In this document: positions 20,337 to 47,760 of the stretch, piece by piece
Position numbering within the stretch: position 1 is the first letter of the stretch
Layout of the letters: each line of letters starts with the position of its first letter
Assembly: GCA_947303625.1 (NCBI GenBank)
Contig: CAMYYV010000001.1
Span: forward strand, 10,507-74,506
Origin: an uncultured Bacteroidales bacterium
GTDB taxonomy: Bacteria > Bacteroidota > Bacteroidia > Bacteroidales > F082
Direction: 5' to 3'
Length of the DNA: 64,000 bases
Notes under the pieces: generated by a model
What the model was told of the DNA's origin: nothing
The model's database searches: none
Seen by the model: the letters and a program-made list of their open reading frames with translations, nothing else
Program-made: the position numbers and the translations under genes

Positions 20337-21110
20337 ATGAAAAGTTTGCATTACATCATCGCCGCGCTGTTGGTTCTTTTTCAGGTTTCATGTGCCAGTG
20401 TCAAGAGCCTTGAAGCGGCGCCGGATGGGCCTGTCGAGATACCAAGGATCATGGACGGTCGTCTTAGCCAGGTCATCTTTCACAAGGGCTATGCCGTTTC
20501 GTTCAACACCGATACAAAGCTGCCCAATTGGGTGGCTTACGAGCTCACCAATGTGGAAGCTCAAGGCACTGGCAAACGTGACGGTCGTTTCTATCCCGAC
20601 CCTGACGTTGAGGGAGTTCAGGCGACTTACGACGACTATCGCAGCACGGGGTGGGACAAAGGCCATATCGCTCCGGCAGGTGACATGAAATGGGATCCTC
20701 AGGCGATGTATGAGAGTTGCTATTTCACCAATATCTGTCCACAAAATCATAACCTGAATGGTGGCGTATGGAGGTCGTTGGAAGAGAAATGCCGCGATTA
20801 TGCCTGTCGTTATGAGAATGTATATATCGCCGCCGGACCCATTGTGGGCGAGGCACGCAATGGCACGATCGGTTACAACGAGGTGGTAGTCCCCGATGGA
20901 TTTTATAAGGTGCTACTCGTTTGCATCGACGGCCAATACGAAGGCATAGGATTCTATTTCGAAAACGTCGCAGGCCATAAGCCTTTGCCGAGCTATGCCA
21001 TGACCATCGACGAGATTGAGGCCATGACGGGCATCGATTTCTTCTTCGCGCTTCCCGACAAGATCGAAGACGAGGTGGAGGGCAGAATAAATGAAGAGAT
21101 TTGGTTTTAA
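20337..21110 (+). CDS. Secreted DNA/RNA non-specific endonuclease (NucA/EndoG beta-beta-alpha-Me family)
   Basis: 257 aa with a signal or lipoprotein N-terminus (LLVLFQVSCAS). GWDKGHIAPAGD corresponds to the DRGH active-site motif, and NICPQNHNLNGGVW to the downstream Asn motif. Confidence 0.85.
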   Translation: MKSLHYIIAALLVLFQVSCASVKSLEAAPDGPVEIPRIMDGRLSQVIFHKGYAVSFNTDTKLPNWVAYELTNVEAQGTGKRDGRFYPDPDVEGVQATYDDYRSTGWDKGHIAPAGDMKWDPQAMYESCYFTNICPQNHNLNGGVWRSLEEKCRDYACRYENVYIAAGPIVGEARNGTIGYNEVVVPDGFYKVLLVCIDGQYEGIGFYFENVAGHKPLPSYAMTIDEIEAMTGIDFFFALPDKIEDEVEGRINEEIWF

Positions 21111-21165: not shown

Positions 21166-22437
21166 ATGAGCGAATTGCAATCTGGTGAGAAGATAAGCCT
21201 GCTCAACGGCGGCTACGTCACCATCAAGAAAGAGTTGGGTCGAGGAGGCCAGGGCATCGTCTATCTGGTGGACCTCAACGGCCAACCCAAGGCATTGAAG
21301 TGGTATCACAATATGCCTGACCGAAACTTCTACAATAATTTGGCTAACAACGTGATGAACGGCGCCCCAAGCCCGGCTTTCCTTTGGCCTGAGCGTATCA
21401 CCGAGCGTCAAAAGGACAGTTTCGGCTATGTGATGGCTCTGCGCCCGAATAACTACTTTGAATTCGGCAACTATCTCTTAGCGAAGAAGAGCTTCAAGTC
21501 GTTTCAGGCCATGATGGCAGCGGCCATGAAGATCTGCAACGGCTTCATGATGCTGCACCGCTTCGGCTACAGTTACCAGGACCTTAACGATGGAAACTTC
21601 TTCATCGATCCTGACACGGGCGACGTGATGATTTGCGACAACGACAACGTGATGCCGCAAGGGGAGAAGTCGGGCATCATGGGTAAGGCGCGTTATATGG
21701 CCCCCGAGATTGTGGCGGGCGGCATCCCCGACAAGTACAGCGACCGCTTCTCGTTGTCGGTCATACTATTCATGCTTTTCTATGCCAACCATCCGTTTGA
21801 AGGTGCCAAGGTGGTGGCTTGTCCCTGCATGACCGAGGCCTTCGAGAAGAAGTTCTACGGCAGCGAGGCGGTGTTTATCTACGACCCTAACGACAAGAGC
21901 AACCTGCCCGTGCGTGGCATCCACCAGAATGTGATACGCCGCTGGCCGGTGATGCCTGCCGAGTTGCGCGAGACCTTCATCCGCGAGTTCAACCCCGAAA
22001 TGCTGAAGAACCCGCAGAAGCGCATGATTGAGCAGAACTGGGAGAAGTTGATTGCCTCGTTGCGCGACAGATTGGTGATTTGTCCGCATTGTGGAGAGGA
22101 GACTTTCATTGACGAGTCGAAGCCGCAATGTATGAACTGCAAACGCGACGTGGATGTCAGCCGTACGCTGAAACTGGGGATGCGCACCCTGCTGTTGACC
22201 AACGGTACCCGCCTGTTCATCGACTTCGACAACACCCCTGATGCTCGTGTTGTGGCCAATCCGCAGGACCCGGGCATGCTTTTGTTACAAAACTTCTCGA
22301 AAGAGAAATGGACGGCTGAGACGCCAAGCGGCAAGTTAAAAGAGGTTGAACCCAACGGTTTGATGCCCGTCAAACACGGCATTAAGATTTCGTTTAGTGC
22401 TGTCTATAAAGGAGAGATCAATATCAATAATCAATAA
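21166..22437 (+). CDS. Ser/Thr protein kinase of a TerY-P triad, with a C-terminal zinc ribbon and beta-rich tail
   Basis: 423 aa. Gly loop LGRGGQGIVY, beta3 Lys ALKWY, catalytic loop YQDLNDGN, DND in place of DFG, and MAPE. The zinc ribbon is CPHCGEE..CMNCKRD. Confidence 0.85.
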   Translation: MSELQSGEKISLLNGGYVTIKKELGRGGQGIVYLVDLNGQPKALKWYHNMPDRNFYNNLANNVMNGAPSPAFLWPERITERQKDSFGYVMALRPNNYFEFGNYLLAKKSFKSFQAMMAAAMKICNGFMMLHRFGYSYQDLNDGNFFIDPDTGDVMICDNDNVMPQGEKSGIMGKARYMAPEIVAGGIPDKYSDRFSLSVILFMLFYANHPFEGAKVVACPCMTEAFEKKFYGSEAVFIYDPNDKSNLPVRGIHQNVIRRWPVMPAELRETFIREFNPEMLKNPQKRMIEQNWEKLIASLRDRLVICPHCGEETFIDESKPQCMNCKRDVDVSRTLKLGMRTLLLTNGTRLFIDFDNTPDARVVANPQDPGMLLLQNFSKEKWTAETPSGKLKEVEPNGLMPVKHGIKISFSAVYKGEININNQ

Positions 22438-22449: not shown

Positions 22450-23193
22450 ATGTCATTATTAGATGAAACTGTAAGCGTGCCGCGCAGAACCATGACGCTT
22501 TTCTTTGTGATCGATACTTCAGGCAGTATGGCTGGAAGCAAGATAGGTGCCGTCAACGACGCGGTGGTCAATGTGTTGCCCATGCTCGACGAGATCTCCG
22601 TCACCAATCCCGATGCCGAAATCAAAGTGGCAGCATTAGAGTTCTCGACGGGTTGCAGCTGGCTTTATAACGAGCCGAAACTGGCCAGCGAGTTTGTTTG
22701 GCAGGACGTGCAGGCCAGCGGTCTCACCTCGTTGGGTGCTGCTTGTGAGGAACTGGAAAACAAGCTGTCACGCAGTAAGGGCTTTATGCAGTCAGCCAGC
22801 GGCTCGTTTGCTCCGGCCATCATATTGCTGTCGGACGGCGCCCCTACCGATAATTTCGAGGCGGGTCTTGACAAGCTGAAGTGCAACAACTGGTTCAAGT
22901 CGGCCATCAAGGTGGCCATCGCCATCGGTGACGATGCCGACAAGGATGTCTTGTCTAGGTTCACAGGCACCAACGAAGCCGTGTTTACCGTCCACAACAT
23001 CGATGCATTAAAACAGATCATCCGTGTGGTGGCCGTCACCTCGTCGCAGATCGGCAGCAAGAGCAGCACGGCTGGCGAAACCACCAAGCAGGACCAAGTG
23101 ATCAACGAGGTGCAGAACGCCATCGACAATATCGACGGTGCCGAAGTCGCGACGAAGGTCGACAGCAGCTCCTATACCGACGATTGGGATTAA
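22450..23193 (+). CDS. vWA-domain protein, TerY-like
   Basis: 247 aa. MIDAS motif FVIDTSGSMAG, later LLSDGAPTD and IAIGDDAD. Size and context match TerY. Confidence 0.88.
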   Translation: MSLLDETVSVPRRTMTLFFVIDTSGSMAGSKIGAVNDAVVNVLPMLDEISVTNPDAEIKVAALEFSTGCSWLYNEPKLASEFVWQDVQASGLTSLGAACEELENKLSRSKGFMQSASGSFAPAIILLSDGAPTDNFEAGLDKLKCNNWFKSAIKVAIAIGDDADKDVLSRFTGTNEAVFTVHNIDALKQIIRVVAVTSSQIGSKSSTAGETTKQDQVINEVQNAIDNIDGAEVATKVDSSSYTDDWD

Positions 23194-23204
23194 GCCTCGA
23201 TTCC

Positions 23205-24464
23205 ATGAAGTGCTTTGATTTTCATTGCCAAGGCGAGAGCCATAAGGCAACCGACAAGGTGTGCCAGGACTTTTCCTACAGTCATATCGATGAGGATGGT
23301 CTTGCCATTGCCATTGTGTGTGACGGACATGGAGGGAAACGGTATTTCCGTAGCGATGTGGGAGCACGTTTTGCCACGGAGATTATCGCCAATAATGTCA
23401 AAGAGTTTGTCAACAACATTGACGAGACATTGCTTGTTGGTCAGCCTTTCACCCAACAAGCGGCGATTCAAACCGAGATTGCTCGGCAGGACTTCCGTAA
23501 GGAAAGACCTGTCGATAAGGCGTTCCGACAGCTGTTTGCCTCCATTATCGGGCAATGGCAGCAGCGGATTGAGCGACATGCAGCCGAAAATCCCCTGAAT
23601 GAGAAAGAAAACGCACAAGTGGAAGAGCAATACCGTAAGGAGTTCCTGTCGGGTTACAAGCTGGAAAAGATCTATGGTTGCACCTTGATGGCATACGTCA
23701 GTACGCCGAAGTATTGGTTCGCCTTCCATCTCGGCGATGGCAAGATGATCTCGTTCGACAAGGAAGCACAGTGGAAGGAGCCCGTGCTGTGGGACGACCG
23801 GTGCTTCCTCAACAAGACCACCTCGATTTGCGACTCTGAGGCTTTGAATGAGTTCCGCTACACCTACCAAGGAGACGGAGAGTTTCCCATTGCCGTTTTC
23901 CTTGGCTCCGATGGTATGGATGACTCGTTTGGCGAGGAAGCCAATCTGGTGAACTTCTATGTGAAAGTGGCAAAATCGTTGGTTACTGACGGCTTTGATG
24001 CCACCTTTACGGACATTAAAGAAACATTGCCGGTGTTGAGCAAGCGTGGCAGCCAGGACGATATGTCGGTGGCCTGTGTGTACGACGAGGCGCGGCTGGA
24101 GGAGGCATTGCCTAAGTTCATTCTTTGGCAGATTGCTGTTACCAAAGCCGACATCCTTGCTGTCAACCGAAAGATCGAGGATGCCAAAGACAGGCGTCGT
24201 CGCTTGGAGGCGATGGGCGGCCATGCCGAGAAGGAACAGATAGAGCTGCGCTACGCCCAAAGCGATATCGCTCGAGGCTACGCTGAGAAGCAGCAGCTAG
24301 TCAAGAAGATGGATATCCTGCTGAAAGAATACTATGGTGATGCTTTTGTGCCTTATCAGGATGAAGTGGGCATAGCAGAAAAGGAGCGTGTTCTTGATTG
24401 GAAGATGATAGAAGGAAGCTCGAATGGAATTAGATTGGTATTGGTTTGGGTAGAGAAAGAATAA
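23205..24464 (+). CDS. PP2C-family Ser/Thr phosphatase of the TerY-P triad, with a coiled-coil C-terminal extension
   Basis: Start taken at MKCFDF (ATG 23205). Motifs VCDGHGGKRYF, HLGDGKM, LGSDGMDDSF and GSQDDMSVACV. Confidence 0.85.
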   Translation: MKCFDFHCQGESHKATDKVCQDFSYSHIDEDGLAIAIVCDGHGGKRYFRSDVGARFATEIIANNVKEFVNNIDETLLVGQPFTQQAAIQTEIARQDFRKERPVDKAFRQLFASIIGQWQQRIERHAAENPLNEKENAQVEEQYRKEFLSGYKLEKIYGCTLMAYVSTPKYWFAFHLGDGKMISFDKEAQWKEPVLWDDRCFLNKTTSICDSEALNEFRYTYQGDGEFPIAVFLGSDGMDDSFGEEANLVNFYVKVAKSLVTDGFDATFTDIKETLPVLSKRGSQDDMSVACVYDEARLEEALPKFILWQIAVTKADILAVNRKIEDAKDRRRRLEAMGGHAEKEQIELRYAQSDIARGYAEKQQLVKKMDILLKEYYGDAFVPYQDEVGIAEKERVLDWKMIEGSSNGIRLVLVWVEKE

Positions 24465-25324: not shown

Positions 25325-25693
25325 ATGAGAAAACTATCAAAAGAAGCATTTGTGACGATGGGCGTCTGCTCCAAGTGCAAGAAGCCTTTCGGGATCACAG
25401 TCGACCTGGCTGATGAACGGCGCAACGAATACGTGTTCGTCTGGGCGTTCAAGATCAATGCAGAGCAGGCACACCGTGAGGGCTACGACAGCAAGACGGT
25501 CCACGGGGGCATCAGCTACGATCCCGAATACCCAGGCTGTCCCTACTGCGAGGAGCAGGCTTTTTACATCTGTGGAAAATGCGGTAGCATCGTCTGTTGG
25601 CATGGCGATCGTGAGGTTACCTGCCCTAAGTGTGGCAACCGTGGTGTGGTCGAAGAGGCCTCGTCGTTCGATATCAGGGGAGGAGGCTACTAA
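25325..25693 (+). CDS. Stand-alone TerY-C-like metal-binding (multi-CxxC) protein
   Basis: 122 aa with CSKCKK, CPYCEE, CGKCGS and CPKCGN motifs. The TerY-C metal-binding domain is described as a partner of TerY-P triads. Confidence 0.7.
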   Translation: MRKLSKEAFVTMGVCSKCKKPFGITVDLADERRNEYVFVWAFKINAEQAHREGYDSKTVHGGISYDPEYPGCPYCEEQAFYICGKCGSIVCWHGDREVTCPKCGNRGVVEEASSFDIRGGGY

Positions 25694-25696: not shown

Positions 25697-26566
25697 ATGG
25701 GCCAGACCTCACATCCTCAGGCGGAAACCTACTGTGAGCAGGGTAAGAAACTGCTGGAGCAGGGTAAATACCTTGCGGCATTGGAGTATTTCCAGGCTGC
25801 CGTGGAGCTTGATGCCGAGCACGTAGATGCACTCTATGGTCAGGTGTGCGTCTACAGGGCATTGGGTAAACTCGACAAGGAGGCAGAGTTTCAAAGGCGC
25901 ATGGATGCCGTCATCCAAAAGAAACCCTCCGGCAGTCATTGGGATCTGTCGTCGATGGGCCAACTTGAAAAGGCCAGAAAACGCTATTCGGTTTTGCTGA
26001 AACAACTGATAACGGTAAAGACGGATGAGTATGGGTTGAAGTGCGGTGTTTATTCGCCGGACGCCTGCAAAGAATTGGCGTCATGTGAGGCATTGATCGA
26101 GTCGCTGGAACAGCAGCTGAAGCTCAATCGCACCGATTTCAAGAGGAAGAGGGCAGAAGCCCTGTCACGTATTTCCTCGGGCCCGAAGGATATCAAGAGG
26201 GCCTACAGGAAAGCGAAGCGGAAGTATGCCCGACTGATAAGGCATAACCTTGTGAGGGTGAAGGGTCCGGTAAGGGCTTTCGAGGTGTCGTCGTCAATCT
26301 GGAATCGCGAGAAGGCCATCAGGTCGATGATTGAGGCTTTGGATCCTGTGAACGGCAAGTCTTGGTGCAGCCGCAAGGTCTCCACTTTGATACAGAGACG
26401 GACGAATCTTCCTCGTAGGCTGTTGAAAGCATTGAAAATCACTGGCATAGTGGCAGCTGTCGGCGTTGGCATTTTGCTTGTCTATCTCGTGATAAGGTTC
26501 TTTTGGTACATCATCATAGGCGGAGCGATATTGCTGGCGATTATTGGAGTTTTCAAAGGCGACTGA
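25697..26566 (+). CDS. TPR-repeat protein with a C-terminal membrane anchor
   Basis: 289 aa. TPR-like helices (YCEQGKKLLEQGKYLAALEYFQAAVELDAEHVDALYGQ) and two C-terminal TM segments (ITGIVAAVGVGILLVYLVI, IIIGGAILLAIIGVF). It starts 3 nt after the TerY-C stop. Confidence 0.8.
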   Translation: MGQTSHPQAETYCEQGKKLLEQGKYLAALEYFQAAVELDAEHVDALYGQVCVYRALGKLDKEAEFQRRMDAVIQKKPSGSHWDLSSMGQLEKARKRYSVLLKQLITVKTDEYGLKCGVYSPDACKELASCEALIESLEQQLKLNRTDFKRKRAEALSRISSGPKDIKRAYRKAKRKYARLIRHNLVRVKGPVRAFEVSSSIWNREKAIRSMIEALDPVNGKSWCSRKVSTLIQRRTNLPRRLLKALKITGIVAAVGVGILLVYLVIRFFWYIIIGGAILLAIIGVFKGD

Positions 26567-26607: not shown

Positions 26608-26640
26608 GCCCCTAAACAAAACTAAGGGGCTTTTTTTGTT
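26608..26640 (+). terminator. Rho-independent terminator
   Basis: GCCCCT-aaacaaaacta-AGGGGC followed by TTTTTTTGTTTTTTC. It lies 42 nt after the TPR gene stop. Confidence 0.6.
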
Positions 26641-26681
26641 TTTTCTTTTTTTGAAAAGTGGATTTTGGTTTATTTTTTGCG

Positions 26682-26689
26682 TATCTTTG
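26682..26689 (+). promoter_or_regulatory. -7 box TATCTTTG ahead of the giant helicase gene
   Basis: TAnnTTTG match 72 nt upstream of the 26761 ATG. The leader contains an AACCGAA..TTCGGTT hairpin. Confidence 0.4.
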
Positions 26690-26760
26690 CAATTCTTAAC
26701 CGAACAAGGCCATTTTGTCTATGATTTCGGTTCGTTATAACCAACTAAATCAACATATCT

Positions 26761-29700
26761 ATGGAATTTGACGATATATTTCAATCCAATGCAGAAAATA
26801 AAAGCCAATCTGCGGAAGACCTTTGGGCAACTGGGGATAGCTCAAAGCAAGGCGGGAGCCAAACATACGACTTTCAATCCCAGGATTTTTTTGATTTGCT
26901 GAGCAAGGATAGCGGTCCAACGGAGACTGTTACTTTTGGTTTTGACGGGCTGATGGATTCGCCTAAAAAAGAGATGGCTATTGAGGATGCGCTTCAAGAA
27001 TCACATTTTGTCCCGACAGACGGTCTTGTGGCCTACTATCCCTTCGATGGCGACACCAACGATTATAGTGGCAATGGAAATCATGGAACCATCATTGGTG
27101 ATGTCGAGCCAGCGCCTGGCAGACATGGCAATCCCAATGGTGCCTACCGTTTCCCGGGTGAACCATTCAATTACATTTCTATTCGCGATGCCGAAGTCCT
27201 ACATCTGAGCTCTTTTACGCTTAGCGCTTGGGTTTTCTCGGATTCGGAAGACTATGGTTCGGGTCCTGTCGACCTTCCCGTATTAAGACCCATCATTAAC
27301 AAGGGAAGAGATATTGTTAATGGCTCCTACCGCTTGAATGTGAATGGCGTTGGTGCCCAAAACCTATACGGAGGGTCTAATGACGCTAGTGTCGACCACA
27401 TCCCCCAACTTGGTCAATGGCACATGGTTACAGGAACGGTAAAGGGGGATCAGGCTCGTTTATACATCGATGGCAAATTACAAGCAGAAACGATATTGTC
27501 GTTTCCTTTCAGCTATGGCAATTCAGATCCTTTGGCAATAGGAATGCACTATTATCCAGGGGTACCACCACAATGGGCCTATCCTTTTAAAGGGGTCATT
27601 GACGAAGTAAGGATTTACAATAGGGCTTTTTCACCGTCGGAAGTGAATTCGCTATATCATTATGATGAAAGAGGTGCAGGTGCCTCTATTGATCATTCTG
27701 CAGAAGAATCAAACGATGGCCTGGCGGAGCAGGAATTTGGTGAGTACGAGGTCGACTTCATGGATGAAACCAAGATCAAGGTAGTGATCAACCACAACCC
27801 ATCGGTGAATTTCGCCATGCAGCAGAACAGAGTGCCGTTGCTTAAGGAGATTCGGGTGAGAAACGTGTCGAATAGCTTGCTTTCCGATTTGGTGGTTGAG
27901 GTCACTGCTGATCCGGAGTTTGCCACAAGGTGGACCTGCGGCATCACGGAGCTCTCTTCGTTGGAAGAGGTGAGCATCACCGACATCCCATTGGCGGTGT
28001 CGGCCTCCTACTTGGCCCAGTTGACCGAGGGTGTGGCAGGCAATCTGCGCGTGCGCATCAGGATGGGCAAGGTGGGATTGTACGACCAAACCGTTCCCGT
28101 CGACCTGGATGCCTTCGACCAATGGAGAGGACTCTCGATGGAGCCTAAGGTGCTGGCGTCGTTTGTGCAGCCTAAGCATCCTGCCTTGCCGCCTATCTTG
28201 GTGAAAGCTTCAGAGATCTTGAAGAAATGGTCGGGTTCGCCTACCTTTGACGAATACCAGACCAGAGACCCCAACCGCGTCAAGATGCAGATGGCCTCGG
28301 TATTTGCAGCTTTGGCGGAACTGAAAGTGGTCAACGTGTCGCCAGCCGTCGACTATACTCGGTCGGGCGACAAGTTACGTTTCCCCGATGCCATCATCGA
28401 CACAAGGATGGCTTCTGATTTGGACATGGCCTTGCTCTATGCATCGCTTTTGGAGGCTATCGGTCTTCATGCGTTGATTGCCTTCTCCGAAGATGCCATT
28501 TTGGTGGGTAGTTGGCTCATTCCCGATTGTTTTGCAGATACGGCGGGCGACGATGTTTCGTTGCTGTCGAAGCGACTCTCCAAAGGCATAGAGGAACTGG
28601 CTTTCGTCAGTGTGAAGTGCCTGTTCTCGGGCAATGCGAAACCCTTCGATAAGGCTGGCGACGATGCGGCTGCCGTGCTATCGAATGTCGACAAGTTCTT
28701 GATGGTTATTGATATCTGTCGTGCCCGTATGTCGCATATTCGTCCCTTGCCTTTGCGCGTGATGGGAAGCAACGGCTACGAGATTGTTGTGGAAGAGGAT
28801 GACATGGATGCCGAAAAGCCTATGCAAGTGTCGGCGGGCAATCTTGTCTTGGACGATGGCACGACCGAAGTCACCAAGCAGACGATTTGGGAAAGAAGGT
28901 TGCTGGACTTGACCCTACGTAACAACCTGTTGAGTACCAGGATCAATAAAAAGACCTTGCAGATCGTGTCTGTCAAGGTGAATGAAATTGAGGATGCCCT
29001 TGCCGCCAATCAGGAGTTCAAGATCTTGGAATGCCCTGAGGAGCTGGAGCATCCCGTAGGGGTGGAAGGCATCTTCCAGACCCCGAATAATTCGGACACC
29101 GTCATCGACTTCTTGAGGGAGGAGCTGAAGCAAAACCGCTTGCATGCCTACTTGAAGAAGGACGATTTAGAGTCGGCACTGACGCATCTCTACCGTCAGT
29201 CGCGTCTGTCGATAGAGGAAAACGGTGCCAACACGTTATATCTCGCCATCGGATTGCTTCGGTGGTATGAGACCCCGATCAGCACCAAGCCGAGATTTGC
29301 CCCCATTTTACTTTTGCCTATTGAGATGGTGAGGAAGTCGGCGGCGAGAGGCTATGTCATCAGAGGACGCGGTGAGGAGACCATGCTCAACATCACTTTG
29401 CTCGAATTGCTGCGCCAGTCGTTTGGCATCACCATCAGCGGCCTCGATCCGCTGCCCACCGACCATTCGGGCGTGGATGTCGTCAAGGTGTTCAATACCT
29501 TCCGTAACGCCATCATGGAGCAAACAAGATGGGATGTCGAAGAACAGGCCATCATCGGGACTTTCTCTTTCAACAAGTTCTTGATGTGGAACGACATCCA
29601 CAACAATGTCGATGTGTTGCGACAGAACAAAATTGTCAACGGCTTAATTACAGGACAGGTGGATTGGGGCGACGACCTGCAGGGCGAGATGCCCGATCTG

Positions 29701-32700
29701 GACCAGACGTTCTCGGTGGGCGATTTGGCTCTGCCCATGCCTGCTGATTCGTCGCAAATCGAGGCCATCTCGGCGGCTTTGGGTGGCAAGAGCTTTGTCT
29801 TGCATGGCCCTCCGGGAACGGGAAAGTCGCAGACCATCACCAATATCATCGCCAATGGCCTGTATAAAGGAAAGAAAATCTTGTTTGTCGCCGAGAAGAT
29901 GGCGGCCCTGCAAGTGGTGCAGAAGCGTCTCGAGGCAATAGGGCTGGCGCCATTCTGCTTGGAGTTGCATTCCAACAAGGCCAAGAAGAGTGCGGTGATT
30001 GAACAGTTGAAGCGCACGGTGGAAACAACCAAGCAAAAGTCGAGTCAGCAGTTCCAAAAGGAAGCCTCGCAGCTGAATGCGTTACGAAGCGAGATCAACG
30101 ATTATGTGACTGCGTTGCACCGTCCTTATCCCATCGGACGCTCGCTCTACGACTGCTTCTCCGACTATAGCTCGGTGGCAGAGTTCACTTCAGCCGAGTT
30201 GCTGCCCTTCGATAGTGTCGGGTCGTTGACGGAGGAGGACCTGCTGAGATACAATGCCTGGCTTCAAGAGTATGTGTCCATTTGTGGCATCCTCGGAGAT
30301 GTCGCCAATGCCCCGCTTCGCGCTTGCAAAAACCCCAACTACCAACCTGCGCTCAAATCGGAGCTGCAAGATAAATTGACTGCTTTGAAAGAAGAAGCGG
30401 AGTCATGTCGAGCCAATTACGAAGCCTATTGCCATGCGGTGGGTTGGACATTCTCCGACCGTCTTGAATGGATGGCCTCTCTTCAGGATTTCGTCAGGTT
30501 GCATAACGACGGGACGTCTCTACCCGCAGTCTTAGGGTCGTCGGACTTTGATGCCGATGCCGATTGGGCCAGACGGTTGATTGTCGCTGGCAAAGCCAAG
30601 GATGAGGCACGTCATGTGGTATGTGAGCGATTGGGACAGCCTTTCCTGAATGCAGATGTGGCACAAATGCGGCAGGAATGGCAGGCGATAGAGGCCTTTA
30701 TTGCTGGCTATCCGATCGCCAAAACCATGAGCGGGAAGGTAAGCCTCTCGGAAGCCTTTACCCAAGTACCGCAATGCTATCAGCAGATGATGTTCCAGTA
30801 TTCGGTTGTGGCAGGATGGCTTGGCATGGAAAACGAGACACCTACGGCATCCCGATGCGAACAGATGATAAGGGTGTTCAATTCGTTGCTCGAGATGCGT
30901 CTGCTTATTCCGGATTTGTTCTCGGAAGGTAACAAGAGGCAGTGTTGGGCCGACTTGTCGGATATGATCAGCCATGTCGAGAAACGAAACCAGTATCGCG
31001 ACCAGTTGTTGAAACGGTTCAGGCCAACTGCGTTCGACTTGAATTACGTCGAGCTTCAGAACGAATGGGTTGAGGCGAACTCGAAGAGCTTTATCTCGAA
31101 GAAGCTTGGACAGAACAAAGTGCTTAAGAAGGTGAATGTCCATGCCTTGTCGGAGGTCACTGAAGAGGAAATGCCCGATGTGCTGGTGCTCTTCAGAGGC
31201 TATTGGGACGAAGTGGGTTGCGTCTACCATTATGCTGAATGGGCAAAGAAACTGATGGGCTATGAATGGAAGGAAGGCAGTTTCGACATCGCGTTGCTTA
31301 AAAAGACCATGGATATCCATACCACGATTCACGGCCAGCTGCTTTCGATGACCCAAGACGAGAGAAAGACCGCCTTGGCCGAGTCAACATTGGTGAGTTG
31401 CATCGGAAACGACATACAGAATTTCCATGCCATGAAGGACGTGGAGATTCATCGGTTTATCCGCATGTTTGAGGATTTCGTGGAAAAATACAAAGATTTC
31501 AACAGCCATGGCGTTCCTTCCTCGACAGTGCTCGCTACCATTGAGGAATACCAGAAAGCCGAGGCTTGGCTTGCCGAGCATCAGATGCAGGGAAGCAGGT
31601 TGTTTGGCAGTTTGTGGAACCCCGAGTCTTGTCAATGGAGCACATTGGAGCACGCCTTGTTGCAGACGAACTTGTTGCGCACCTGTGTCGCCAATCTGGA
31701 ACAAAATACAGAGAGACAGAACGCGGTAAGGATGAAGCTGGCCGCAGCCTATGTTAATGGCGGTGCCGACAACGCTGTGATGCAAAACACCGTCCCGAAC
31801 TATCAGGAAATGGTTTCGGCATTACAGGCGAAAGCCGCGGAATGCAACCGCTTGTTGTGTGGTGAGATGATCGTCTTGGATGATGACGCGTTCTTGTCGA
31901 AACTGGCTTCAAGTGCCGGCTTTGTGCTGCAGCATCTTGACGAGCTCAAGGACGCATGCAAATACAACGAAGTGGCGAATTCCGTTCCCGACAAGGCGCT
32001 TCAGGTGTTGGTCGACAAAGTGGAGAATGGCACCATCGACGGCATCCTCATCGGCTTATACTACAAGAAGTGCTTTGCCCGCACTTATGCCGAACACATT
32101 CTTTCGGTCGATCCTTTGCTGAGCAACTTCCATGGGAAGATGTTTGAGGAGAAGATCACCTATTACAAGCGCCTGTGCCAGAGGTTTGAGCGCTTGACTC
32201 GTGAGGAGTTGTATGCCAAGTTGGCTTCCAACATGCCCAACTTCCAGGTGGAGGCGGCGGGCAATTCCGAAGTGGGCATCTTGCAGCGCAACATCAGGAA
32301 TGGTGCGAGGGGCATGTCGCTGCGTTCGTTGTTCGACAAGATCCCCGACCTGCTCACCCGTATTTGTCCTTGCATGTTGATGAGCCCGATTTCGGTGGCA
32401 CAGTATATCGACGCCAGAGGTGCAAAGTTCGACTATGTCATCTTCGACGAGGCATCGCAGATGCCTACCTGCGAGGCCGTTGGCACTATCGCGAGGGGAA
32501 AGAACGTGATTGTTGTTGGTGACCCGAAACAATTGCCTCCGACATCGTTCTTCGAGGCGAACGCCTTCGACGAGGACAATGCCGACAAGGAAGACTTGGA
32601 GAGCATCCTCGACGACTGCCTGGCGCTTTCCATGCCTTCGAAATACCTGCTGTGGCACTACCGCAGCAAACACGAAAGCTTGATTGCATTCAGCAATATG

Positions 32701-34269
32701 AGGTATTACGGCAACAAACTGATGACGTTCCCATCGCCCGACGACCTGACCACGAAGGTCTCCTTCCAATATGTGGATGGCATTTACGACAAGGGTCGTA
32801 CGAGGCAGAACCGTGAAGAGGCCGTGGCCGTGGTCGAAGAGATCAGGCAGCGGCTGTCGGATCCGGTGAAGTCGCGTCAGAGCATCGGCGTGGTGACTTT
32901 CAACACCAACCAGCAGTCGTTGATCGAGGATCTGCTCAACAACCTTTTCCGTCAAGAGCCGAAACTGGAAAAGACAGCTTTGGAATGCGAGGAGCCTCTC
33001 TTCGTCAAGAATCTGGAGAATGTACAAGGCGACGAGCGTGACGTCATCCTCTTCTCGGTCGGTTATGGCGCTGACAAGATGGGCAGGGTGTCGATGAATT
33101 TCGGTCCTCTTAACCGCGATGGCGGTTGGCGCCGACTGAACGTCGCAGTCTCGCGTGCCCGTTATGAGATGAAGGTGTTTTCGACCCTTACCCCCGACCA
33201 AATCGACTTGAACCGCTCGTCGGCCCAAGGTGTGGCAGGGTTGAAGGCATTCTTGGAATATGCCCAGAACGGAAGGCTGTCGTTGGCCTACGAAACCGCC
33301 AACAGCAAACGCACCAACGACTATTTGGTGCTGTCGGTTGCGGAGGAGATTAGGATGAAAGGATATGAGGTAAGGACGAACATCGGCTCGTCGGGCTATC
33401 GTGTCGACATCGGTGTCGTTGACCCTCAAGATCGTGGTAAGTTTGTGTTGGGTATCCTTTGCGACGGCTACAACTATGCTACCGCCAAGTCGGCGCGCGA
33501 TAGGGAGATTACGAGAGGCATGGTGCTTAAGCTGTTAGGATGGCGTATCAGCCGCGTGTGGGCCATGGAGTGGTGGGAGAGCCACGATGGCGCGCTCCAG
33601 AAGCTGTTGAGCGATATCGAGAAAGCCATCGCCGGGAAATGGGATGAGGAGGCGGAAGAAGTCGTGCCGGAAGTGGAAGAAACCGAAGAAGAAGTGGTGG
33701 AGGAGATCGTCGACCCGAAGGCCGTGCCTTACGTGAAAGCCGAGCTGCAGGCTATGCCTCCTGTGACGCCCGACGAAGTCATCTCTGGAGGCTATGCCCA
33801 TACCATCCTGAAAATCTTTGATGACATCATCAGGGCCGAAGCACCGGTCAGCAAAAAGATGCTCCTCAGGAGGACCAATGCCACCTTGGGCATTACTAGG
33901 TCTGGACAACGGCTCGCGCCTTATTACGATGCCTTACTGAGAAGTCACGGTTATCCCAAGACCGTGTATGGCGACGACATCTTCTATTGGAACATCAATC
34001 AGGATCCACGACAGCTTGACGTCTATCGTCCCGAATCGGACCGTGAGGCTTTGGATATTGCCCCTGAGGAGGTGATGGTAGCCGCGTGTCAGGTGCTAGA
34101 CCAGCAGGGAGCCTTGCCTGTGCAAGACTTGTTGCGTCAGGTGGCCAAGCGATTCAGGTTCTCGCGTTTGGGCGACAATGTCGTTCTCTCCATGCGTCGC
34201 GGTCTTGAACTGGCGTGGAAGTCTGGCAAGGTGATTGTGGAAAACGAAAAAGTGAAGTTAGTGAGGTGA
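26761..34269 (+). CDS. Giant multidomain protein (Hhe-like): LamG (Laminin_G_3) - unassigned region - DUF4011 - SF1 (Upf1-like AAA_11/AAA_12) helicase - PD-(D/E)xK REase (MTES_1575/DUF559-like) - DUF3320
   Basis: 2502 aa. LamG: LVAYYPFDGDTNDYSGNGNHGT ... FKGVIDEVRIYNRAFSPSEVNSLY (about 27013-27660). DUF4011-like: WERRLLDLTLRNNLL ... NTLYLAIGLLRW (from about 28880). Walker A: LHGPPGTGKSQT (about 29806). Walker B: VIFDEASQM (about 32444). Also VVGDPKQLPPT, QGDERDVI and LNVAVSRAR. Nuclease: GYRVDIGV..LGILCDGYNYATAKSARDRE..GWRISRVW (about 33325-33590). Confidence 0.92.
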   Translation: MEFDDIFQSNAENKSQSAEDLWATGDSSKQGGSQTYDFQSQDFFDLLSKDSGPTETVTFGFDGLMDSPKKEMAIEDALQESHFVPTDGLVAYYPFDGDTNDYSGNGNHGTIIGDVEPAPGRHGNPNGAYRFPGEPFNYISIRDAEVLHLSSFTLSAWVFSDSEDYGSGPVDLPVLRPIINKGRDIVNGSYRLNVNGVGAQNLYGGSNDASVDHIPQLGQWHMVTGTVKGDQARLYIDGKLQAETILSFPFSYGNSDPLAIGMHYYPGVPPQWAYPFKGVIDEVRIYNRAFSPSEVNSLYHYDERGAGASIDHSAEESNDGLAEQEFGEYEVDFMDETKIKVVINHNPSVNFAMQQNRVPLLKEIRVRNVSNSLLSDLVVEVTADPEFATRWTCGITELSSLEEVSITDIPLAVSASYLAQLTEGVAGNLRVRIRMGKVGLYDQTVPVDLDAFDQWRGLSMEPKVLASFVQPKHPALPPILVKASEILKKWSGSPTFDEYQTRDPNRVKMQMASVFAALAELKVVNVSPAVDYTRSGDKLRFPDAIIDTRMASDLDMALLYASLLEAIGLHALIAFSEDAILVGSWLIPDCFADTAGDDVSLLSKRLSKGIEELAFVSVKCLFSGNAKPFDKAGDDAAAVLSNVDKFLMVIDICRARMSHIRPLPLRVMGSNGYEIVVEEDDMDAEKPMQVSAGNLVLDDGTTEVTKQTIWERRLLDLTLRNNLLSTRINKKTLQIVSVKVNEIEDALAANQEFKILECPEELEHPVGVEGIFQTPNNSDTVIDFLREELKQNRLHAYLKKDDLESALTHLYRQSRLSIEENGANTLYLAIGLLRWYETPISTKPRFAPILLLPIEMVRKSAARGYVIRGRGEETMLNITLLELLRQSFGITISGLDPLPTDHSGVDVVKVFNTFRNAIMEQTRWDVEEQAIIGTFSFNKFLMWNDIHNNVDVLRQNKIVNGLITGQVDWGDDLQGEMPDLDQTFSVGDLALPMPADSSQIEAISAALGGKSFVLHGPPGTGKSQTITNIIANGLYKGKKILFVAEKMAALQVVQKRLEAIGLAPFCLELHSNKAKKSAVIEQLKRTVETTKQKSSQQFQKEASQLNALRSEINDYVTALHRPYPIGRSLYDCFSDYSSVAEFTSAELLPFDSVGSLTEEDLLRYNAWLQEYVSICGILGDVANAPLRACKNPNYQPALKSELQDKLTALKEEAESCRANYEAYCHAVGWTFSDRLEWMASLQDFVRLHNDGTSLPAVLGSSDFDADADWARRLIVAGKAKDEARHVVCERLGQPFLNADVAQMRQEWQAIEAFIAGYPIAKTMSGKVSLSEAFTQVPQCYQQMMFQYSVVAGWLGMENETPTASRCEQMIRVFNSLLEMRLLIPDLFSEGNKRQCWADLSDMISHVEKRNQYRDQLLKRFRPTAFDLNYVELQNEWVEANSKSFISKKLGQNKVLKKVNVHALSEVTEEEMPDVLVLFRGYWDEVGCVYHYAEWAKKLMGYEWKEGSFDIALLKKTMDIHTTIHGQLLSMTQDERKTALAESTLVSCIGNDIQNFHAMKDVEIHRFIRMFEDFVEKYKDFNSHGVPSSTVLATIEEYQKAEAWLAEHQMQGSRLFGSLWNPESCQWSTLEHALLQTNLLRTCVANLEQNTERQNAVRMKLAAAYVNGGADNAVMQNTVPNYQEMVSALQAKAAECNRLLCGEMIVLDDDAFLSKLASSAGFVLQHLDELKDACKYNEVANSVPDKALQVLVDKVENGTIDGILIGLYYKKCFARTYAEHILSVDPLLSNFHGKMFEEKITYYKRLCQRFERLTREELYAKLASNMPNFQVEAAGNSEVGILQRNIRNGARGMSLRSLFDKIPDLLTRICPCMLMSPISVAQYIDARGAKFDYVIFDEASQMPTCEAVGTIARGKNVIVVGDPKQLPPTSFFEANAFDEDNADKEDLESILDDCLALSMPSKYLLWHYRSKHESLIAFSNMRYYGNKLMTFPSPDDLTTKVSFQYVDGIYDKGRTRQNREEAVAVVEEIRQRLSDPVKSRQSIGVVTFNTNQQSLIEDLLNNLFRQEPKLEKTALECEEPLFVKNLENVQGDERDVILFSVGYGADKMGRVSMNFGPLNRDGGWRRLNVAVSRARYEMKVFSTLTPDQIDLNRSSAQGVAGLKAFLEYAQNGRLSLAYETANSKRTNDYLVLSVAEEIRMKGYEVRTNIGSSGYRVDIGVVDPQDRGKFVLGILCDGYNYATAKSARDREITRGMVLKLLGWRISRVWAMEWWESHDGALQKLLSDIEKAIAGKWDEEAEEVVPEVEETEEEVVEEIVDPKAVPYVKAELQAMPPVTPDEVISGGYAHTILKIFDDIIRAEAPVSKKMLLRRTNATLGITRSGQRLAPYYDALLRSHGYPKTVYGDDIFYWNINQDPRQLDVYRPESDREALDIAPEEVMVAACQVLDQQGALPVQDLLRQVAKRFRFSRLGDNVVLSMRRGLELAWKSGKVIVENEKVKLVR

Positions 34270-34341: not shown

Positions 34342-35271
34342 ATGGGAATTTTTCAAAATATTTCAACAAAACTAGGCAATCTGTTGTCGGGCGAACCGGC
34401 AAAAGAGCCTAACGTAGAAGAAGTCTCCTCCATCGAAACCGACGAGGTAGCGTTGGAGTCCAAAGAGACTGCCGAAGAGGAGCGTGTAGCACCCGAAGAG
34501 GAGAATGAGACAAAGAAGAAACTTCCCAATTCGGTTGAAATCCGTAATAGGATCAAGAAGTCTACGTTGTCGATGTTGAATTCTCTGTATCTGGCCAATC
34601 CTGAGCTATGCAAAACGAAGCATCTGGTAGTTTGGCTTGACACGGATACGATCACGTTCAACTCGTATTCAGGTTTTGGACAAGAGTTGGAGAACTATTG
34701 GGTCGTTGAGAGCGGCTATTCGTTTGAGAAGGTGGACCTGAGGCAAGGGAAGCCCGAAAACGAAAAAGACGCCAGAATGATCGATGCGGGTGTTGAATCC
34801 ATTGCCATCTACTTGCAAGAGCATAAGGCAGGCCTTGGCAGAAGCGTTGTGAAGAGAGCACGTGTTTCCGTTATCGGAAGCAAGGGGAGTCTCGTTCAAG
34901 ACCCGTGTGAATTGTCAAGCGAGATGCTTGAAAAGGAAGGCGTGAAGTGTTTCAACATTGGGCGCGGAGCGTTTCCTAACGTAGGGGAGGGGGGCTATCG
35001 GCAGAACAATATCGCTATTGACGACAAGAACAATCTTGAAACGAACCGTTACGTCAGTCGCGCACATGCGCATATTGGGTTTTCCGAAACTATTGGCTTC
35101 TATTTGCAGGTGGAGTATGGCGGCAGCAGACTGTCGGGAAACCGTACAAGGATATTCCGCGGCGAGGAAAAGATAGAAGTGGAGAATGTGGAGGTGAAGG
35201 AACCCCTGCAGAATGGCGACTTGATAGAATTGGGCAAGGCGGTGGTGCTGCAATTTATTGAGATAGAATAA
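34342..35271 (+). CDS. FHA-domain protein with an FhaA-like layout (MGIF N-terminus, acidic linker, C-terminal FHA)
   Basis: 309 aa. FHA signature FNIGRG...NNIAIDD...VSRAHAHI...GNRTRIFRG...LQNGDLIELGKAVVLQF. Confidence 0.85.
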   Translation: MGIFQNISTKLGNLLSGEPAKEPNVEEVSSIETDEVALESKETAEEERVAPEEENETKKKLPNSVEIRNRIKKSTLSMLNSLYLANPELCKTKHLVVWLDTDTITFNSYSGFGQELENYWVVESGYSFEKVDLRQGKPENEKDARMIDAGVESIAIYLQEHKAGLGRSVVKRARVSVIGSKGSLVQDPCELSSEMLEKEGVKCFNIGRGAFPNVGEGGYRQNNIAIDDKNNLETNRYVSRAHAHIGFSETIGFYLQVEYGGSRLSGNRTRIFRGEEKIEVENVEVKEPLQNGDLIELGKAVVLQFIEIE

Positions 35272-35321
35272 TATAATAAGTAGATGAGCAATTGGGTTTA
35301 CATAATCGACGCGAGACGAAG

Positions 35322-35437
35322 GACTATGACTTGTGACTATGACAATGACCACTTCCGCCAAGAGCTGAAATTTCAGCATTCCCATGAAAGCGGTCATGGT
35401 CAATGGTCATAGTCGAAAAAGTCCCGTGTCCCGTGTC
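35322..35437. repeat. Structured, low-complexity intergenic element
   Basis: The arms GACTATGAC..GACTATGACAATGACCAC and GGTCATGGTCAATGGTCATAGTC form a long imperfect hairpin around the perfect palindrome GCTGAAATTTCAGC (35364-35377). A direct repeat GTCCCGT GTCCCGT follows at 35421-35437. Confidence 0.7.
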
Positions 35438-35453
35438 AAAAGAAAAAGCAGTT

Positions 35454-35461
35454 TAATTTTG
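35454..35461 (+). promoter_or_regulatory. -7 box TAATTTTG (internal promoter candidate)
   Basis: TAnnTTTG match 22 nt upstream of the 35484 ATG. Confidence 0.4.
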
Positions 35462-35483
35462 AATAGTTACTTACTAAAATATT

Positions 35484-36476
35484 ATGGGTATATTAAAAAA
35501 AGCATTGGAGAAACTGCGTCCGGATACTGATAAAGGCAGCGGAAAAACGGATAGTGGCCAAGGTAGAAGCAAGGTTACAAACAAGATTCTCTATAATGAA
35601 CTTATTGAGCACTTTAAGGTCGATATGGAGGAGTTGTCGGTGGGTCGAAGAATCCTTTACCCCATGTCCTTCAACATTCTTTTGCACCCCAGCGATTACG
35701 ATCGTGTTGGCGAGTCGCTCCCTTTTATTCTCCCAGAGGTGGTTGCGGGATTCTATGCCGCCATCAAGGCAAAAAAGGCGAGCATGCAAGAATCAGATGC
35801 GACGCCGCCGGCAACCTACTGGTTTTTCCAATTCGCATCTAGCAAAGTGAAGACGGAAGATGATCAGGAGTCATTCATCAAGCCTGGTGAAATCGTCACG
35901 GTGGGCCGTCTTGTCACTTTCGACATAAAGGCGCAGAAAGGGATGAGAACGGAGAATTTGGGACTGTCGATCAAATGCCAAAACTCCAATGTCAACCAGA
36001 ACAATATCAATCAGGAGGCCTTGCTGGGCATGGAAATTCTCACCAACAACGCCTTTATGTTTAACTTTGACAAGAATATGAGCGAGAAGTTGGGCGACAT
36101 CCAATCCTCGCAACGAGGCGGCAACAACGCTTTGGCCACCTTGACCTATTCTGATGGGACGACGAATGTCCACTTGAAGATGTTGGACGACCTGGTGATT
36201 CTTTCAGGTCCTCAGGAAACCCGAAACATGGAGAACATCATGATCATCAATAGCGAAGCCGTTGAGGTCGGGCATGTGCAAATCCGATATGTCAAAGAGG
36301 CCAACAAATTCCAGCTCTGCGCCTATTCCAAGACGCGGCTTAACATGCGTGAGGTGCCGCTGAGCGTAGGCGGCGTCCCGATATGGAAGGACATGTCGTT
36401 TAATTCTGACATCTTCCTTAACGATGAGGTGAATGTGAAGTTCAAGGCTTCAGACAGTATTATTTCAAGACTCTAG
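35484..36476 (+). CDS. FhaA-like protein: DUF3662-like N-terminal domain plus a degenerate FHA-like C-terminus
   Basis: 330 aa. MGILKKALEKL..., RRILYPMSFNILLHPSDYDRVGESL and IKPGEIVTV parallel the mycobacterial FhaA N-domain pattern. The C-terminus (IMIINSEAVEVGHVQIRY...LNMREV...IFLNDEVNVKF) has FHA-like spacing but lacks the canonical S-x-x-H. Confidence 0.7.
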   Translation: MGILKKALEKLRPDTDKGSGKTDSGQGRSKVTNKILYNELIEHFKVDMEELSVGRRILYPMSFNILLHPSDYDRVGESLPFILPEVVAGFYAAIKAKKASMQESDATPPATYWFFQFASSKVKTEDDQESFIKPGEIVTVGRLVTFDIKAQKGMRTENLGLSIKCQNSNVNQNNINQEALLGMEILTNNAFMFNFDKNMSEKLGDIQSSQRGGNNALATLTYSDGTTNVHLKMLDDLVILSGPQETRNMENIMIINSEAVEVGHVQIRYVKEANKFQLCAYSKTRLNMREVPLSVGGVPIWKDMSFNSDIFLNDEVNVKFKASDSIISRL

Positions 36477-36486
36477 GAGACAAACC

Positions 36487-42163: not shown

Positions 42164-42213
42164 AAAAAAGAAGGAAAATGTATAAGAATAGGGTCTGTTT
42201 GTTGAAGTTTTTG

Positions 42214-42221
42214 TACTTTTG
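42214..42221 (+). promoter_or_regulatory. -7 box TACTTTTG (candidate promoter for the kinase and downstream genes)
   Basis: TAnnTTTG match 61 nt upstream of the 42283 ATG. Confidence 0.35.
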
Positions 42222-42282
42222 GCATGGTTTTAAAGACAATTGCAATTGCGTTGAATAGTCTGGTGGGAGTAAATCTGAAATA

Positions 42283-46045: not shown

Positions 46046-46058
46046 AACTAATTGAAGA

Positions 46059-46736
46059 ATGAAGAAATTATTTTTAATAGTAGTAATATTGCAAAGCCTT
46101 TCTGGAATTGTTTTTTCACAGAATTATTTGACAGAGGAACAAGAGCGAGAAATAAAACTCTCCAATAAATATTATTGGGAGGAAGGCAATGATTATGACG
46201 CTGACCGAGCATATCAAAATGCCATAAATAGTTTGACGGATTTGATCATCATAGATCCCGCCTATCAGAACAGCAGTAGGGAAGAAGTTTTGAACAAAAT
46301 GGAGAATAATGCTCGTTATGGACGAATTAGTCAAAAGGGTATGGTGTGTGTGTTAGTATGGGTTGCGAAAGACAACTTGTATGAAACCGAGAACATTCAG
46401 CAATGTCCGCAAAAAGAACCAGATTCTTCAAAACAAGTTTCGATAGACAGTCCTGTATTGCTAGAGCTGAAAAACTGCAAAGATTGCAAAGAAGTAAACC
46501 AAGTGGTGAATTGTCATGGGTGGATTCGTGGGAGGATTAATAGTTCTGAGGGATTTATTCATCCTGAACTATGCATTGTGGCTGTATTTGATGCCAATGG
46601 TGCTTTAATCGCTTTGCTTGATCAAGAAAAACTCCGTTCGTCCCGGATGGATTTGATTTCAGGGCAATTGATAAGCAATCCTGAGACTAAATTTCAGAAA
46701 GAAGGAATGTATTTATGGTACTTACAACAGAAATAA
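46059..46736 (+). CDS. Hypothetical secreted protein (225 aa)
   Basis: Signal peptide MKKLFLIVVILQSLSGIVFSQ and a 13-nt gap to the previous gene. No motif recognised. Confidence 0.7.
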   Translation: MKKLFLIVVILQSLSGIVFSQNYLTEEQEREIKLSNKYYWEEGNDYDADRAYQNAINSLTDLIIIDPAYQNSSREEVLNKMENNARYGRISQKGMVCVLVWVAKDNLYETENIQQCPQKEPDSSKQVSIDSPVLLELKNCKDCKEVNQVVNCHGWIRGRINSSEGFIHPELCIVAVFDANGALIALLDQEKLRSSRMDLISGQLISNPETKFQKEGMYLWYLQQK

Positions 46737-46748
46737 ATAAAAAAAGAT

Positions 46749-47750: not shown

Positions 47751-47760
47751 AACCACAAAT

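Follow-up and report, generated by a model that had tools for sequence, protein, structure and literature searches.

A LamG domain captured in the variable N-terminal slot of a predicted ProA-family helicase-nuclease from a Bacteroidales lineage

The 64,000-nucleotide stretch of DNA from an uncultured Bacteroidales bacterium that we analyzed (contig CAMYYV010000001.1, positions 10,507 to 74,506; here called the window) carries, at 26761..34269 on the forward strand, a gene with an ATG start that encodes a protein of 2502 amino acids (aa), the single such open reading frame (ORF) at this place. With moderate confidence, we explain the product as an enzyme of the ProA family of anti-phage helicase-nucleases whose N-terminus is a swappable slot, in which a LamG domain has been captured, and whose gene is linked to a neighboring signaling cassette that would take part in its regulation. 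The LamG fusion itself is genuine, rare and recent, as judged from its homologs, its distribution and its composition.

Membership of the protein in the ProA family is very probable on the basis of profile scores and alignments. Against the NCBIfam equivalog model for "anti-phage protein ProA" (NF058533), it scored 2019.1 bits and passed the curated cutoff of 1500, and its core (aa 337 to 2502) aligned collinearly and end to end with ProA members of 1940 aa. The original prediction had instead identified the protein as Hhe, which is reportedly the single-gene defense system of Gao et al. 2020. The two families share a domain vocabulary, with DUF4011, an AAA_11/12 superfamily 1 (SF1) helicase and an MTES_1575 nuclease in one polypeptide, and the Hhe hidden Markov models gave significant partial matches (550 bits with PADLOC PDLC02194 and 797 bits with NCBIfam), mainly over the C-terminal motor and nuclease at aa 1703 to 2319. 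However, the 796.7 bits obtained with the NCBIfam Hhe model (NF042953) fall far below its curated cutoff of 2000, and the N-terminal two-thirds of the protein fit ProA better. The PADLOC models, which have no curated cutoff, gave 1255 bits for the ProA candidate PDC-S37, more than twice the score for Hhe. We found the same pattern for two relatives, P0004 and P0021, which scored 2024 and 2228 bits with the ProA model; P0021 matched the whole ProA profile, starting at its own residue 15. At the level of curated model thresholds, membership in Hhe is ruled out, and we consider it most improbable that the protein belongs to that system rather than to a sister family of it.

The motor and the nuclease of the ProA core are intact and under strong constraint. 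DUF4011 (aa 713 to 884; 28897..29412; Pfam E value of 2.4e-45) is followed by a Upf1-like SF1 helicase in two parts. The first (aa 991 to 1130; 29731..30150) matched AAA_11 at aa 996 to 1110 and contains the Walker A motif GPPGTGKS, which begins at aa 1016 (nucleotide 29806). The remaining helicase core (aa 1851 to 2145; 32311..33195) matched AAA_12 at aa 1955 to 2140 and contains the motifs DEASQ, VGDPKQLPPT, QGDERD and RRLNVAVSRAR; DEASQ, the Walker B motif, begins at aa 1896 (nucleotide 32446), about 870 aa from Walker A. Comparison with sequences of PDB structures placed this core nearest to Upf1/Nam7/Sen1/IGHMBP2, and the columns of the helicase motifs were invariant in our alignment (A1). 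Between the two parts lies a large helical insert (aa 1131 to 1850; 30151..32310). It exceeds the insert of ordinary ProA proteins by about 230 aa, with gaps between BLAST high-scoring segment pairs at about aa 1310 to 1590 relative to the 1940-aa members, and is the fastest-evolving part of the core, with a ratio of nonsynonymous to synonymous substitution rates (dN/dS) of 0.11 and 78% aa identity in the comparison with the related LamG-bearing protein P0002.

The helicase is followed by an MTES_1575 (Vsr-like PD-(D/E)xK) nuclease (aa 2192 to 2286; 33334..33618; Pfam E value of 1.5e-26), in which the motifs RVDIGV, LCDGYNY and RDRE are present and D2216, D2235, D2247 and R2248 are invariant in the alignment. 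The C-terminal region, up to and including the stop codon, is assigned to DUF3320 with its winged helix (aa 2338 to 2502; 33772..34269), the Pfam match itself covering aa 2338 to 2385. Compared with an orthologue of 88% identity (in locus L005), the motor and nuclease gave dN/dS values of 0.01 to 0.03, and the helicase core from aa 1851 to 2145 had a value of 0.012. Anantharaman et al. 2013 (PMC3710099) give MTES_1575 of Microbacterium testaceum as the prototype of this architecture and describe DUF3320 as a winged helix-turn-helix domain. ORF reading and Pfam thus bore out the original description of a 2502-aa defense-type protein with DUF4011, a split Upf1-like SF1 helicase, a Vsr/MTES_1575-type nuclease and a DUF3320 tail, and every domain listed in it is real.

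About 370 aa preceding DUF4011 had been singled out as an unassigned oddity. BLAST alignments, AlphaFold2, Foldseek and the domain description in PMC3710099 instead identify aa 337 to 712 as the standard ProA N-terminus, with a beta-sandwich and a predicted transglutaminase-like domain. Ordinary 1940-aa ProA proteins start at the equivalent of aa 337 to 349, and the beta-sandwich (aa 337 to 450; 27769..28110), an all-beta domain that opens every ProA protein, aligned with residues 1 to 115 of ordinary members. The AlphaFold check that had been proposed, run on aa 1 to 720, succeeded for this part only: aa 337 to 678 were modeled as a beta-sandwich followed by an alpha/beta domain, with pLDDT values (predicted local distance difference test) above 90, while the LamG domain came out with values below 50. 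In Foldseek, the alpha/beta domain (aa 451 to 680; 28111..28800) superposed on factor XIII and transglutaminase 2 with root mean square deviations of 3.5 to 4.5 Å over about 120 columns, and PMC3710099 names the domain at this place Transglutaminase.

Ordinary members carry the signature G-[NT]-C-x-D ... G-H-A, and the Cys and the His were both kept in 174 of the 197 sampled ProA relatives; the pair is a conserved feature of most members and not a stated criterion of NF058533. In the window protein, the alignment places Asp553 at the Cys position and Ala579 at the His position. Among the 11 closest relatives, the Cys is replaced by Asp in P0002 and by Glu in ten proteins of a type described below (X-type), and the His is lost in all but P0204. 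None of the 13 clade members keeps the Cys. Because the catalytic Cys and, except in P0204, the His are lost, the transglutaminase-like domain of this distinct Bacteroidales clade is predicted to be catalytically dead. The alignment thus points to a clade-specific loss of the catalytic pair, which is a new finding.

Everything before aa 337 sets the window protein apart from ordinary ProA members, as its likeness to every other ProA ended at that residue in BLAST searches. The protein begins with an acidic tail (aa 1 to 73; 26761..26979; pLDDT below 50) that starts with MEFDDIFQSNAENKSQSAEDL and contains no hydrophobic stretch, in agreement with the claim that there is no signal peptide. The LamG domain, a predicted ConA-like jelly roll, had been placed at residues of about 85 to 300. 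Pfam confirmed the domain by a match to Laminin_G_3 (PF13385) at aa 137 to 296 with an E value of 2.9e-22 (79.9 bits against a gathering cutoff of 27.6), and homology to related LamG modules spans aa 74 to 305 (26980..27675). A sequence match to PDB entry 4qvs covers aa 96 to 298. A fusion-junction linker with low pLDDT (aa 306 to 336; 27676..27768) leads to the start of the likeness to other ProA proteins.

The combination of LamG with this enzyme had been called unusual, and it is. Laminin_G_3 occurred together with DUF4011 in two entries among the 120 listed of 293 matches, namely P0001, which is identical to the window protein, and the P0002 cluster. The 12 sequences of this cluster are 2501 to 2504 aa long and come from assemblies of NCBI, JGI and ENA, in which they lie on contigs of up to 193 kb. 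The fusion is therefore known from 13 sequences in two clusters at 90% identity, from several assemblies. Query residues before about 305 were matched in none of the best 80 GTDB loci. When 1.84 billion representatives were searched exhaustively with HMMER, none of the top 150 matches combined LamG with a ProA core. A query spanning the junction (aa 201 to 480) returned no new fusions, only X-type fragments and isolated LamG proteins, but it also missed P0001 and P0002 and was thus of poor sensitivity. The N-terminal extension gave a single weak LamG match in a phage database, which is uninformative.

Sequence comparison indicates that the LamG domain was copied recently and almost unchanged from giant secreted Bacteroidales surface proteins. 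Residues 74 to 305 share 49 to 69% identity with a particular LamG module that occurs in giant secreted proteins of Bacteroidales/Prevotella from rumen and gut (26 proteins, P0062, P0065, P0066 and P0074 among them). These are extracellular, multidomain and adhesin-like and carry Flg_new_2, Lcl_C and PKD-like domains, type IX secretion system (T9SS) tails of the Por_Secre_tail kind and, in one case, Rhs. Sixty-nine of the 71 positions that are conserved in at least 90% of the giant proteins are kept in the window LamG, which differs from them in a single 8-residue insertion and in its place at the N-terminus of a cytoplasmic enzyme without a signal peptide. The GC content at third codon positions (GC3) is 0.42 to 0.45 for aa 1 to 336 (0.42 in LamG and 0.43 in the tail) and 0.68 for aa 337 to 2502, with the break exactly at the junction.

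The foreign composition and the very narrow distribution of 13 sequences in two clusters would also fit a passenger, that is, a recent in-frame insertion of a piece of a surface-protein gene at the 5' end that is functionally neutral, with the enzyme working regardless. The tail and the linker evolve fast, as such a passenger might: their aa identities are 61 to 69% (69% for the tail compared with P0002), with dN/dS values of 0.34 in the tail and 0.20 in the linker. The LamG domain itself behaves otherwise. Compared with the L005 orthologue, it has 91% aa identity and a dN/dS of 0.145, while silent sites in the core are near saturation; its conserved positions are retained, and the reading frame, the start codon and the promoter are kept in all members examined. 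Since the dN/dS is this low and the fusion occurs in 13 sequences from several assemblies, we take the fusion to be selectively maintained and not an assembly artifact, and we regard a neutral passenger as unlikely.

Two genes in the window are of kinds that carry the donor-type LamG module elsewhere, one for a 1121-aa T9SS protein with a Por_Secre_tail (7095-10460) and one for a Flg_new_2 protein (43705-44898); tblastn found no LamG copy in either. A low-GC block at 44000-54600 (35 to 41%, compared with about 50%) encodes four tandem paralogues of 235 to 267 aa and a 945-aa protein, all with Lcl_C (PF07603), a domain that co-occurs with the donor-type LamG module in giant surface proteins. 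The same block encodes a DUF5683 protein.

A wider comparison shows that the N-terminus of ProA is a modular, swappable slot. This reading rests on ordinary members starting at aa 337 and on the varied N-terminal extensions of relatives. About 20 of the top representatives have extensions of 130 to 380 aa; those scanned were mostly DUF4145/HepT-like (HEPN), with a single SWIM domain, a single SseB/DUF2314 domain and several without a Pfam match. The nearest relatives of the window protein (P0003 to P0011 and P0204) are about 2297 aa long, share 60 to 63% identity with its core and begin with a 132-aa helical extension that we call X. Across the family, the slot contains HEPN/DUF4145, SWIM, SseB, X, LamG or nothing, and on the evidence of these searches LamG occupies it in this lineage alone.

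Although the gene had been taken to stand alone, it follows, as the last gene, a TerY-P-like cassette that lies directly upstream on the same strand and that is conserved beside its closest relatives. The cassette opens with a Ser/Thr kinase (21166..22437; Pfam Pkinase) of the TerY-P type, in which we read a G-loop, the catalytic Lys, Asp and Asn (motifs ALK and YQDLNDGN), APE and a C-terminal zinc ribbon (CPHCG..CMNCK, aa 306 to 326). It continues with a TerY-like vWA protein (22450..23193; Pfam VWA) with an intact metal ion-dependent adhesion site (MIDAS), DTSGS, and with a PP2C phosphatase (23184..24464; Pfam PP2C_2, E value of 7e-28). Then follow a standalone X protein of 240 aa (P0125; 24491..25213; no Pfam match, identified by its model and by tblastn), a TerY_C zinc-binding protein (25325..25693; Pfam TerY_C, E value of 1e-8) and a protein with tetratricopeptide repeats (TPR) and a hydrophobic C-terminal stretch of two predicted transmembrane helices (25697..26566; Pfam TPR families). 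In related loci, the kinase is 85 to 94%, the vWA protein 93 to 96%, the PP2C phosphatase 79 to 86% and the TerY_C protein 75 to 96% identical. Upstream of the cassette lies an Endonuclease_NS gene (20337..21110, forward strand; Pfam), a neighbor kept in loci with and without the cassette; it is 67 to 88% identical in L006 and L086 to L089 and is present in L094, L096 and L097.

The cassette contains the elements of the TerY-P triad as this is defined in PMC11090510 (summarizing Anantharaman et al. 2012), namely a vWA protein with a MIDAS, a PP2C phosphatase and a Ser/Thr kinase that ends in a zinc ribbon. That source also reports such triads beside the Upf1-like helicase-nuclease systems termed CoCoNuT (type II/III-A, helicase CnuH), and the likeness extends to the Upf1-like helicase with a nuclease that is encoded beside the cassette here. 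Unlike in those systems, the effector here is a ProA-type DNA-nuclease fusion and not a set of McrBC/HEPN CoCoNuT components, the cassette adds separate TerY_C, membrane TPR and X proteins, and the LamG lineage can dispense with the cassette. In addition, no PADLOC model matched the vWA or PP2C protein at an E value of 0.001 or below, although the TerY-P content of PADLOC is unverified, and the kinase matched only the PD-T4-6 and mad6 kinase models.

The linkage is clearest among the X-type helicases, which were cassette-linked in all seven loci examined; only one of these loci has a standalone X. The cassette genes beside them (L001/L002, L003/L004, L006, L086, L087 and L089) are 80 to 96% identical. 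The position of the X-type helicase gene varies, being after the PP2C, the TerY_C or the TPR gene. Outside the cassette, L001, L003 and the window have different flanks. In two loci a gene for a PIF1-like SF1 helicase lies between the kinase and vWA genes (L087, about 4051-5895; L088, 7457-9250); L088 has the cassette and the PIF1-like helicase without a ProA gene, and L087 has both. About 8 kb upstream of the cassette, the window encodes a 457-aa TerB-domain protein (12013-13386, reverse strand), which is found in the same place in L094 and L097.

The X extension and the standalone X protein are related. In its N-terminal half, P0125 shares homology with the X extension found on the sister helicases (tblastn E values of 1e-17 to 1e-20; 1e-17 for P0004 aa 1 to 112), a Rosetta-stone link between the cassette and the helicase at the level of sequence. 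The X family comprises P0125 and 67 other clusters, at least 68 in total, among which only P0147 has a Pfam domain (PF03781); in P0147, half of X is fused to an FGE-sulfatase domain. P0125 was modeled with a pLDDT of 86.8 as a bundle of seven helices that a disordered linker joins to an Ig-like beta-sandwich. A PDB fold search with this model returned nothing for the helical domain and generic matches for the beta-sandwich, with a best E value of 0.02. Distant X members occur in cassettes of the order TerY_C-kinase-vWA-PP2C, where they come right after the PP2C gene in L091 and L093; in L092, an ORF of 120 aa lies between the two. The genes after these cassettes encode DNA motors: FtsK/SpoIIIE in L091, PIF1 and FtsK in L093 and, in L092, a DEAD-box helicase of 1494 aa with a BREX system beside it. 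We infer that these cassettes have in X a conserved fifth member, which had not been described before and which probably couples them to effectors. In the window, the standalone X gene is compositionally foreign, with a GC3 of 0.30.

The window keeps the cassette, and three LamG-type sister loci have lost it. In L094, L096 and L097, whose LamG-type proteins are about 88 to 90% identical to that of the window and which are syntenic with it on both sides, the LamG-helicase gene comes right after the Endonuclease_NS gene, and all of the cassette is gone. Direct reading of the interval upstream of the window gene revealed a terminator-like hairpin, GCCCCT..AGGGGC with a run of T, after the TPR gene (26608..26637, forward strand), which was not flagged by a consensus scan of that strand because its loop exceeds 8 nucleotides and is only suggestive. 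It is followed by a Bacteroidota-type promoter (26660..26692, forward strand) with TTTG and then the -7 box TATCTTTG (26682-26689). The promoter motif GTATCTTTGCAA stands equally far from the ATG in L094, L096 and L097, where it is invariant, and is thus conserved in four loci including the window, which indicates that the LamG-type gene has a conserved promoter of its own. The cassette genes of the window fall within X-type diversity (85 to 96% identity), while its helicase core is about 61% identical to X-type cores, which are 75 to 88% identical to each other; in the LamG lineage, divergence has thus been faster for the helicase than for the neighboring genes.

These data bear on whether the LamG-type helicase might still be the effector of the TerY-P-like cassette, with LamG docking to the standalone X, the vWA or the membrane TPR protein and with Ser/Thr phosphorylation switching the enzyme. 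Such an adaptor role would suit the position of the cassette immediately upstream on the same strand, the linkage at seven of seven examined X-type sister loci, the occurrence of X as a standalone protein exactly where the helicase has no fused X, and the apparent catalytic integrity of the cassette proteins (MIDAS, kinase motifs and DGHGG). However, the gene is still under strong purifying selection in L094, L096 and L097, where no cassette stands at this position. The hairpin and the separately conserved promoter lie between cassette and gene, and the LamG domain keeps 97% of the residues that are conserved in its extracellular relatives, with no sign of remodeling for a new partner. We consider this role for LamG to be unlikely.

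Immediately downstream of the helicase gene lies an operon (34342-43683) that encodes an FHA protein, a 330-aa protein without a Pfam match, a Stp1-like PP2C phosphatase, a 1527-aa fusion of FtsW/RodA with a penicillin-binding protein (PBP) transpeptidase, and a Ser/Thr kinase without PASTA domains. This is an arrangement in the actinobacterial style of fhaA-pstP-rodA-pbpA-pknB, here in a Bacteroidales genome. It is kept beside the LamG-type gene in L094-L097 and is not found beside the X-type relatives. Rfam and tRNA scans of the window revealed nothing relevant to the helicase gene; tRNA genes for Glu-CTC and Arg-ACG lie at 10651-10827 on the reverse strand.

The wider family also speaks to the kind of work that the enzyme does. 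A scan of GTDB with one genome per species found at least 600 stretches of the ProA/Hhe type in Bacteroidota, Bacillota, Verrucomicrobiota and others; among the best 80 of these, the closest relative, from a rumen metagenome-assembled genome labeled "uncultured Bacteroidia", is 61% identical. Ordinary members are about 1940 aa long, and no neighboring gene family was common to more than 6 of their 79 loci, which fits a single-gene system. The window gene, with its cassette, differs from them in this respect, as it does in its additional 336-aa N-terminus with LamG, its lost Cys and His and its longer insert. A stable position between two sets of kinase and phosphatase genes, synteny that persists across relatives of about 88% identity with no integrase or transposase nearby, a downstream FHA/PP2C/RodA-PBP/kinase operon kept beside the gene in the LamG lineage, and a helicase core closest to Sen1, IGHMBP2 and Upf1 could together mark a chromosomal, Upf1/Sen1-like enzyme of nucleic acid maintenance or quality control that is tied to cell envelope Ser/Thr signaling. 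Several observations run counter to such a nonimmune role. The protein passes the curated equivalog model for anti-phage ProA, and ordinary members are scattered over phyla with no conserved neighbor, as is typical of horizontally moving defense genes. Moreover, the HEPN/DUF4145 domains fused to the N-terminus of relatives are conflict-system domains, and the downstream operon is absent beside X-type relatives. We give a maintenance function little credence.

With regard to mechanism, we favor only tentatively, at slightly less than even confidence, a regulatory role of the N-terminus as a gate that would be controlled through X and the cassette, with LamG as an alternative input. The motor and nuclease would, as expected for the family, translocate on and cut invading nucleic acid, and the N-terminal modules would keep the enzyme inactive until they sense a trigger. 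For the X-type relatives, this trigger would be relayed by the phospho-signaling cassette (kinase, PP2C and vWA), to which X would provide the docking domain. LamG would, in its own lineage, bind or sense some component of the phage or the cell directly, along the lines of the sensor role first suggested for it; cassette control would there be replaced or redundant, and the LamG input would have made the cassette dispensable.

A bolder proposal, which we consider doubtful, is that the adhesin-type LamG serves nearly unchanged as a cytoplasmic trigger or targeting domain for a sugar-decorated phage component, such as DNA carrying sugars or a virion protein that is glycosylated or lectin-binding. 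LamG would then have replaced an ancestral circuit of TerY-P and X that was subsequently deleted in the sisters. If true, a sensor swap would have been caught in the act in a bacterial immune protein, which would be a bacterial analogue of the ConA-fold (SPRY-type) viral sensors.

Several points weigh against our overall explanation of the protein as a ProA enzyme with a swappable, regulatory N-terminus. The anti-phage activity of the ProA family is taken from the name of the curated model, as a full-text literature search found no paper behind the name "ProA"; nor did it find any mention of PDC-S37. The locus is stably syntenic and lies outside any obvious mobile defense island, and we saw no integrase, transposase or other mobility gene near it. 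The roles of the N-terminal modules and binding by LamG in the cytoplasm are ones that we infer from sequence. The LamG model, with its pLDDT below 50, was built on an alignment only two sequences deep in that region, and its top-ranking Foldseek matches (sialidase lectin domains, AbnA domain 4 and the NanA CBM40) are to be read with this in mind. In addition, the synonymous divergence (dS) from the L005 orthologue is 0.37 in LamG and 0.7 to 1.2 elsewhere in the gene, possibly reflecting a later exchange or gene conversion of the segment or a composition-dependent saturation. Finally, cassette and helicase could be adjacent through common descent in a single Bacteroidales lineage and not because they are functionally coupled, as the cassette loci, with genes 80 to 96% identical, are not phylogenetically independent.

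What is new here is the loss of the transglutaminase Cys and His, the X domain with its linkage to the cassette, and the loss of the cassette in the LamG sisters. The practical value is modest, as the family is already catalogued and the LamG fusion is limited to one rumen Bacteroidales lineage. For the biology of the family, the proteins form a natural series in which the motor-nuclease chassis stays the same. Ordinary ProA lacks partner genes and has a transglutaminase domain that looks active. In the X-type, the transglutaminase domain is dead, X is fused to the protein and a TerY-P cassette is present; in the LamG-type, that domain is likewise dead, LamG is present and the cassette is optional. 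This series makes three ideas testable, namely that the N-terminus is a regulatory or sensing slot, that TerY-P cassettes may control effectors of the DNA-motor kind by way of the X protein, which had escaped notice, and that a lectin fold of surface proteins may have been redeployed inside the cell.

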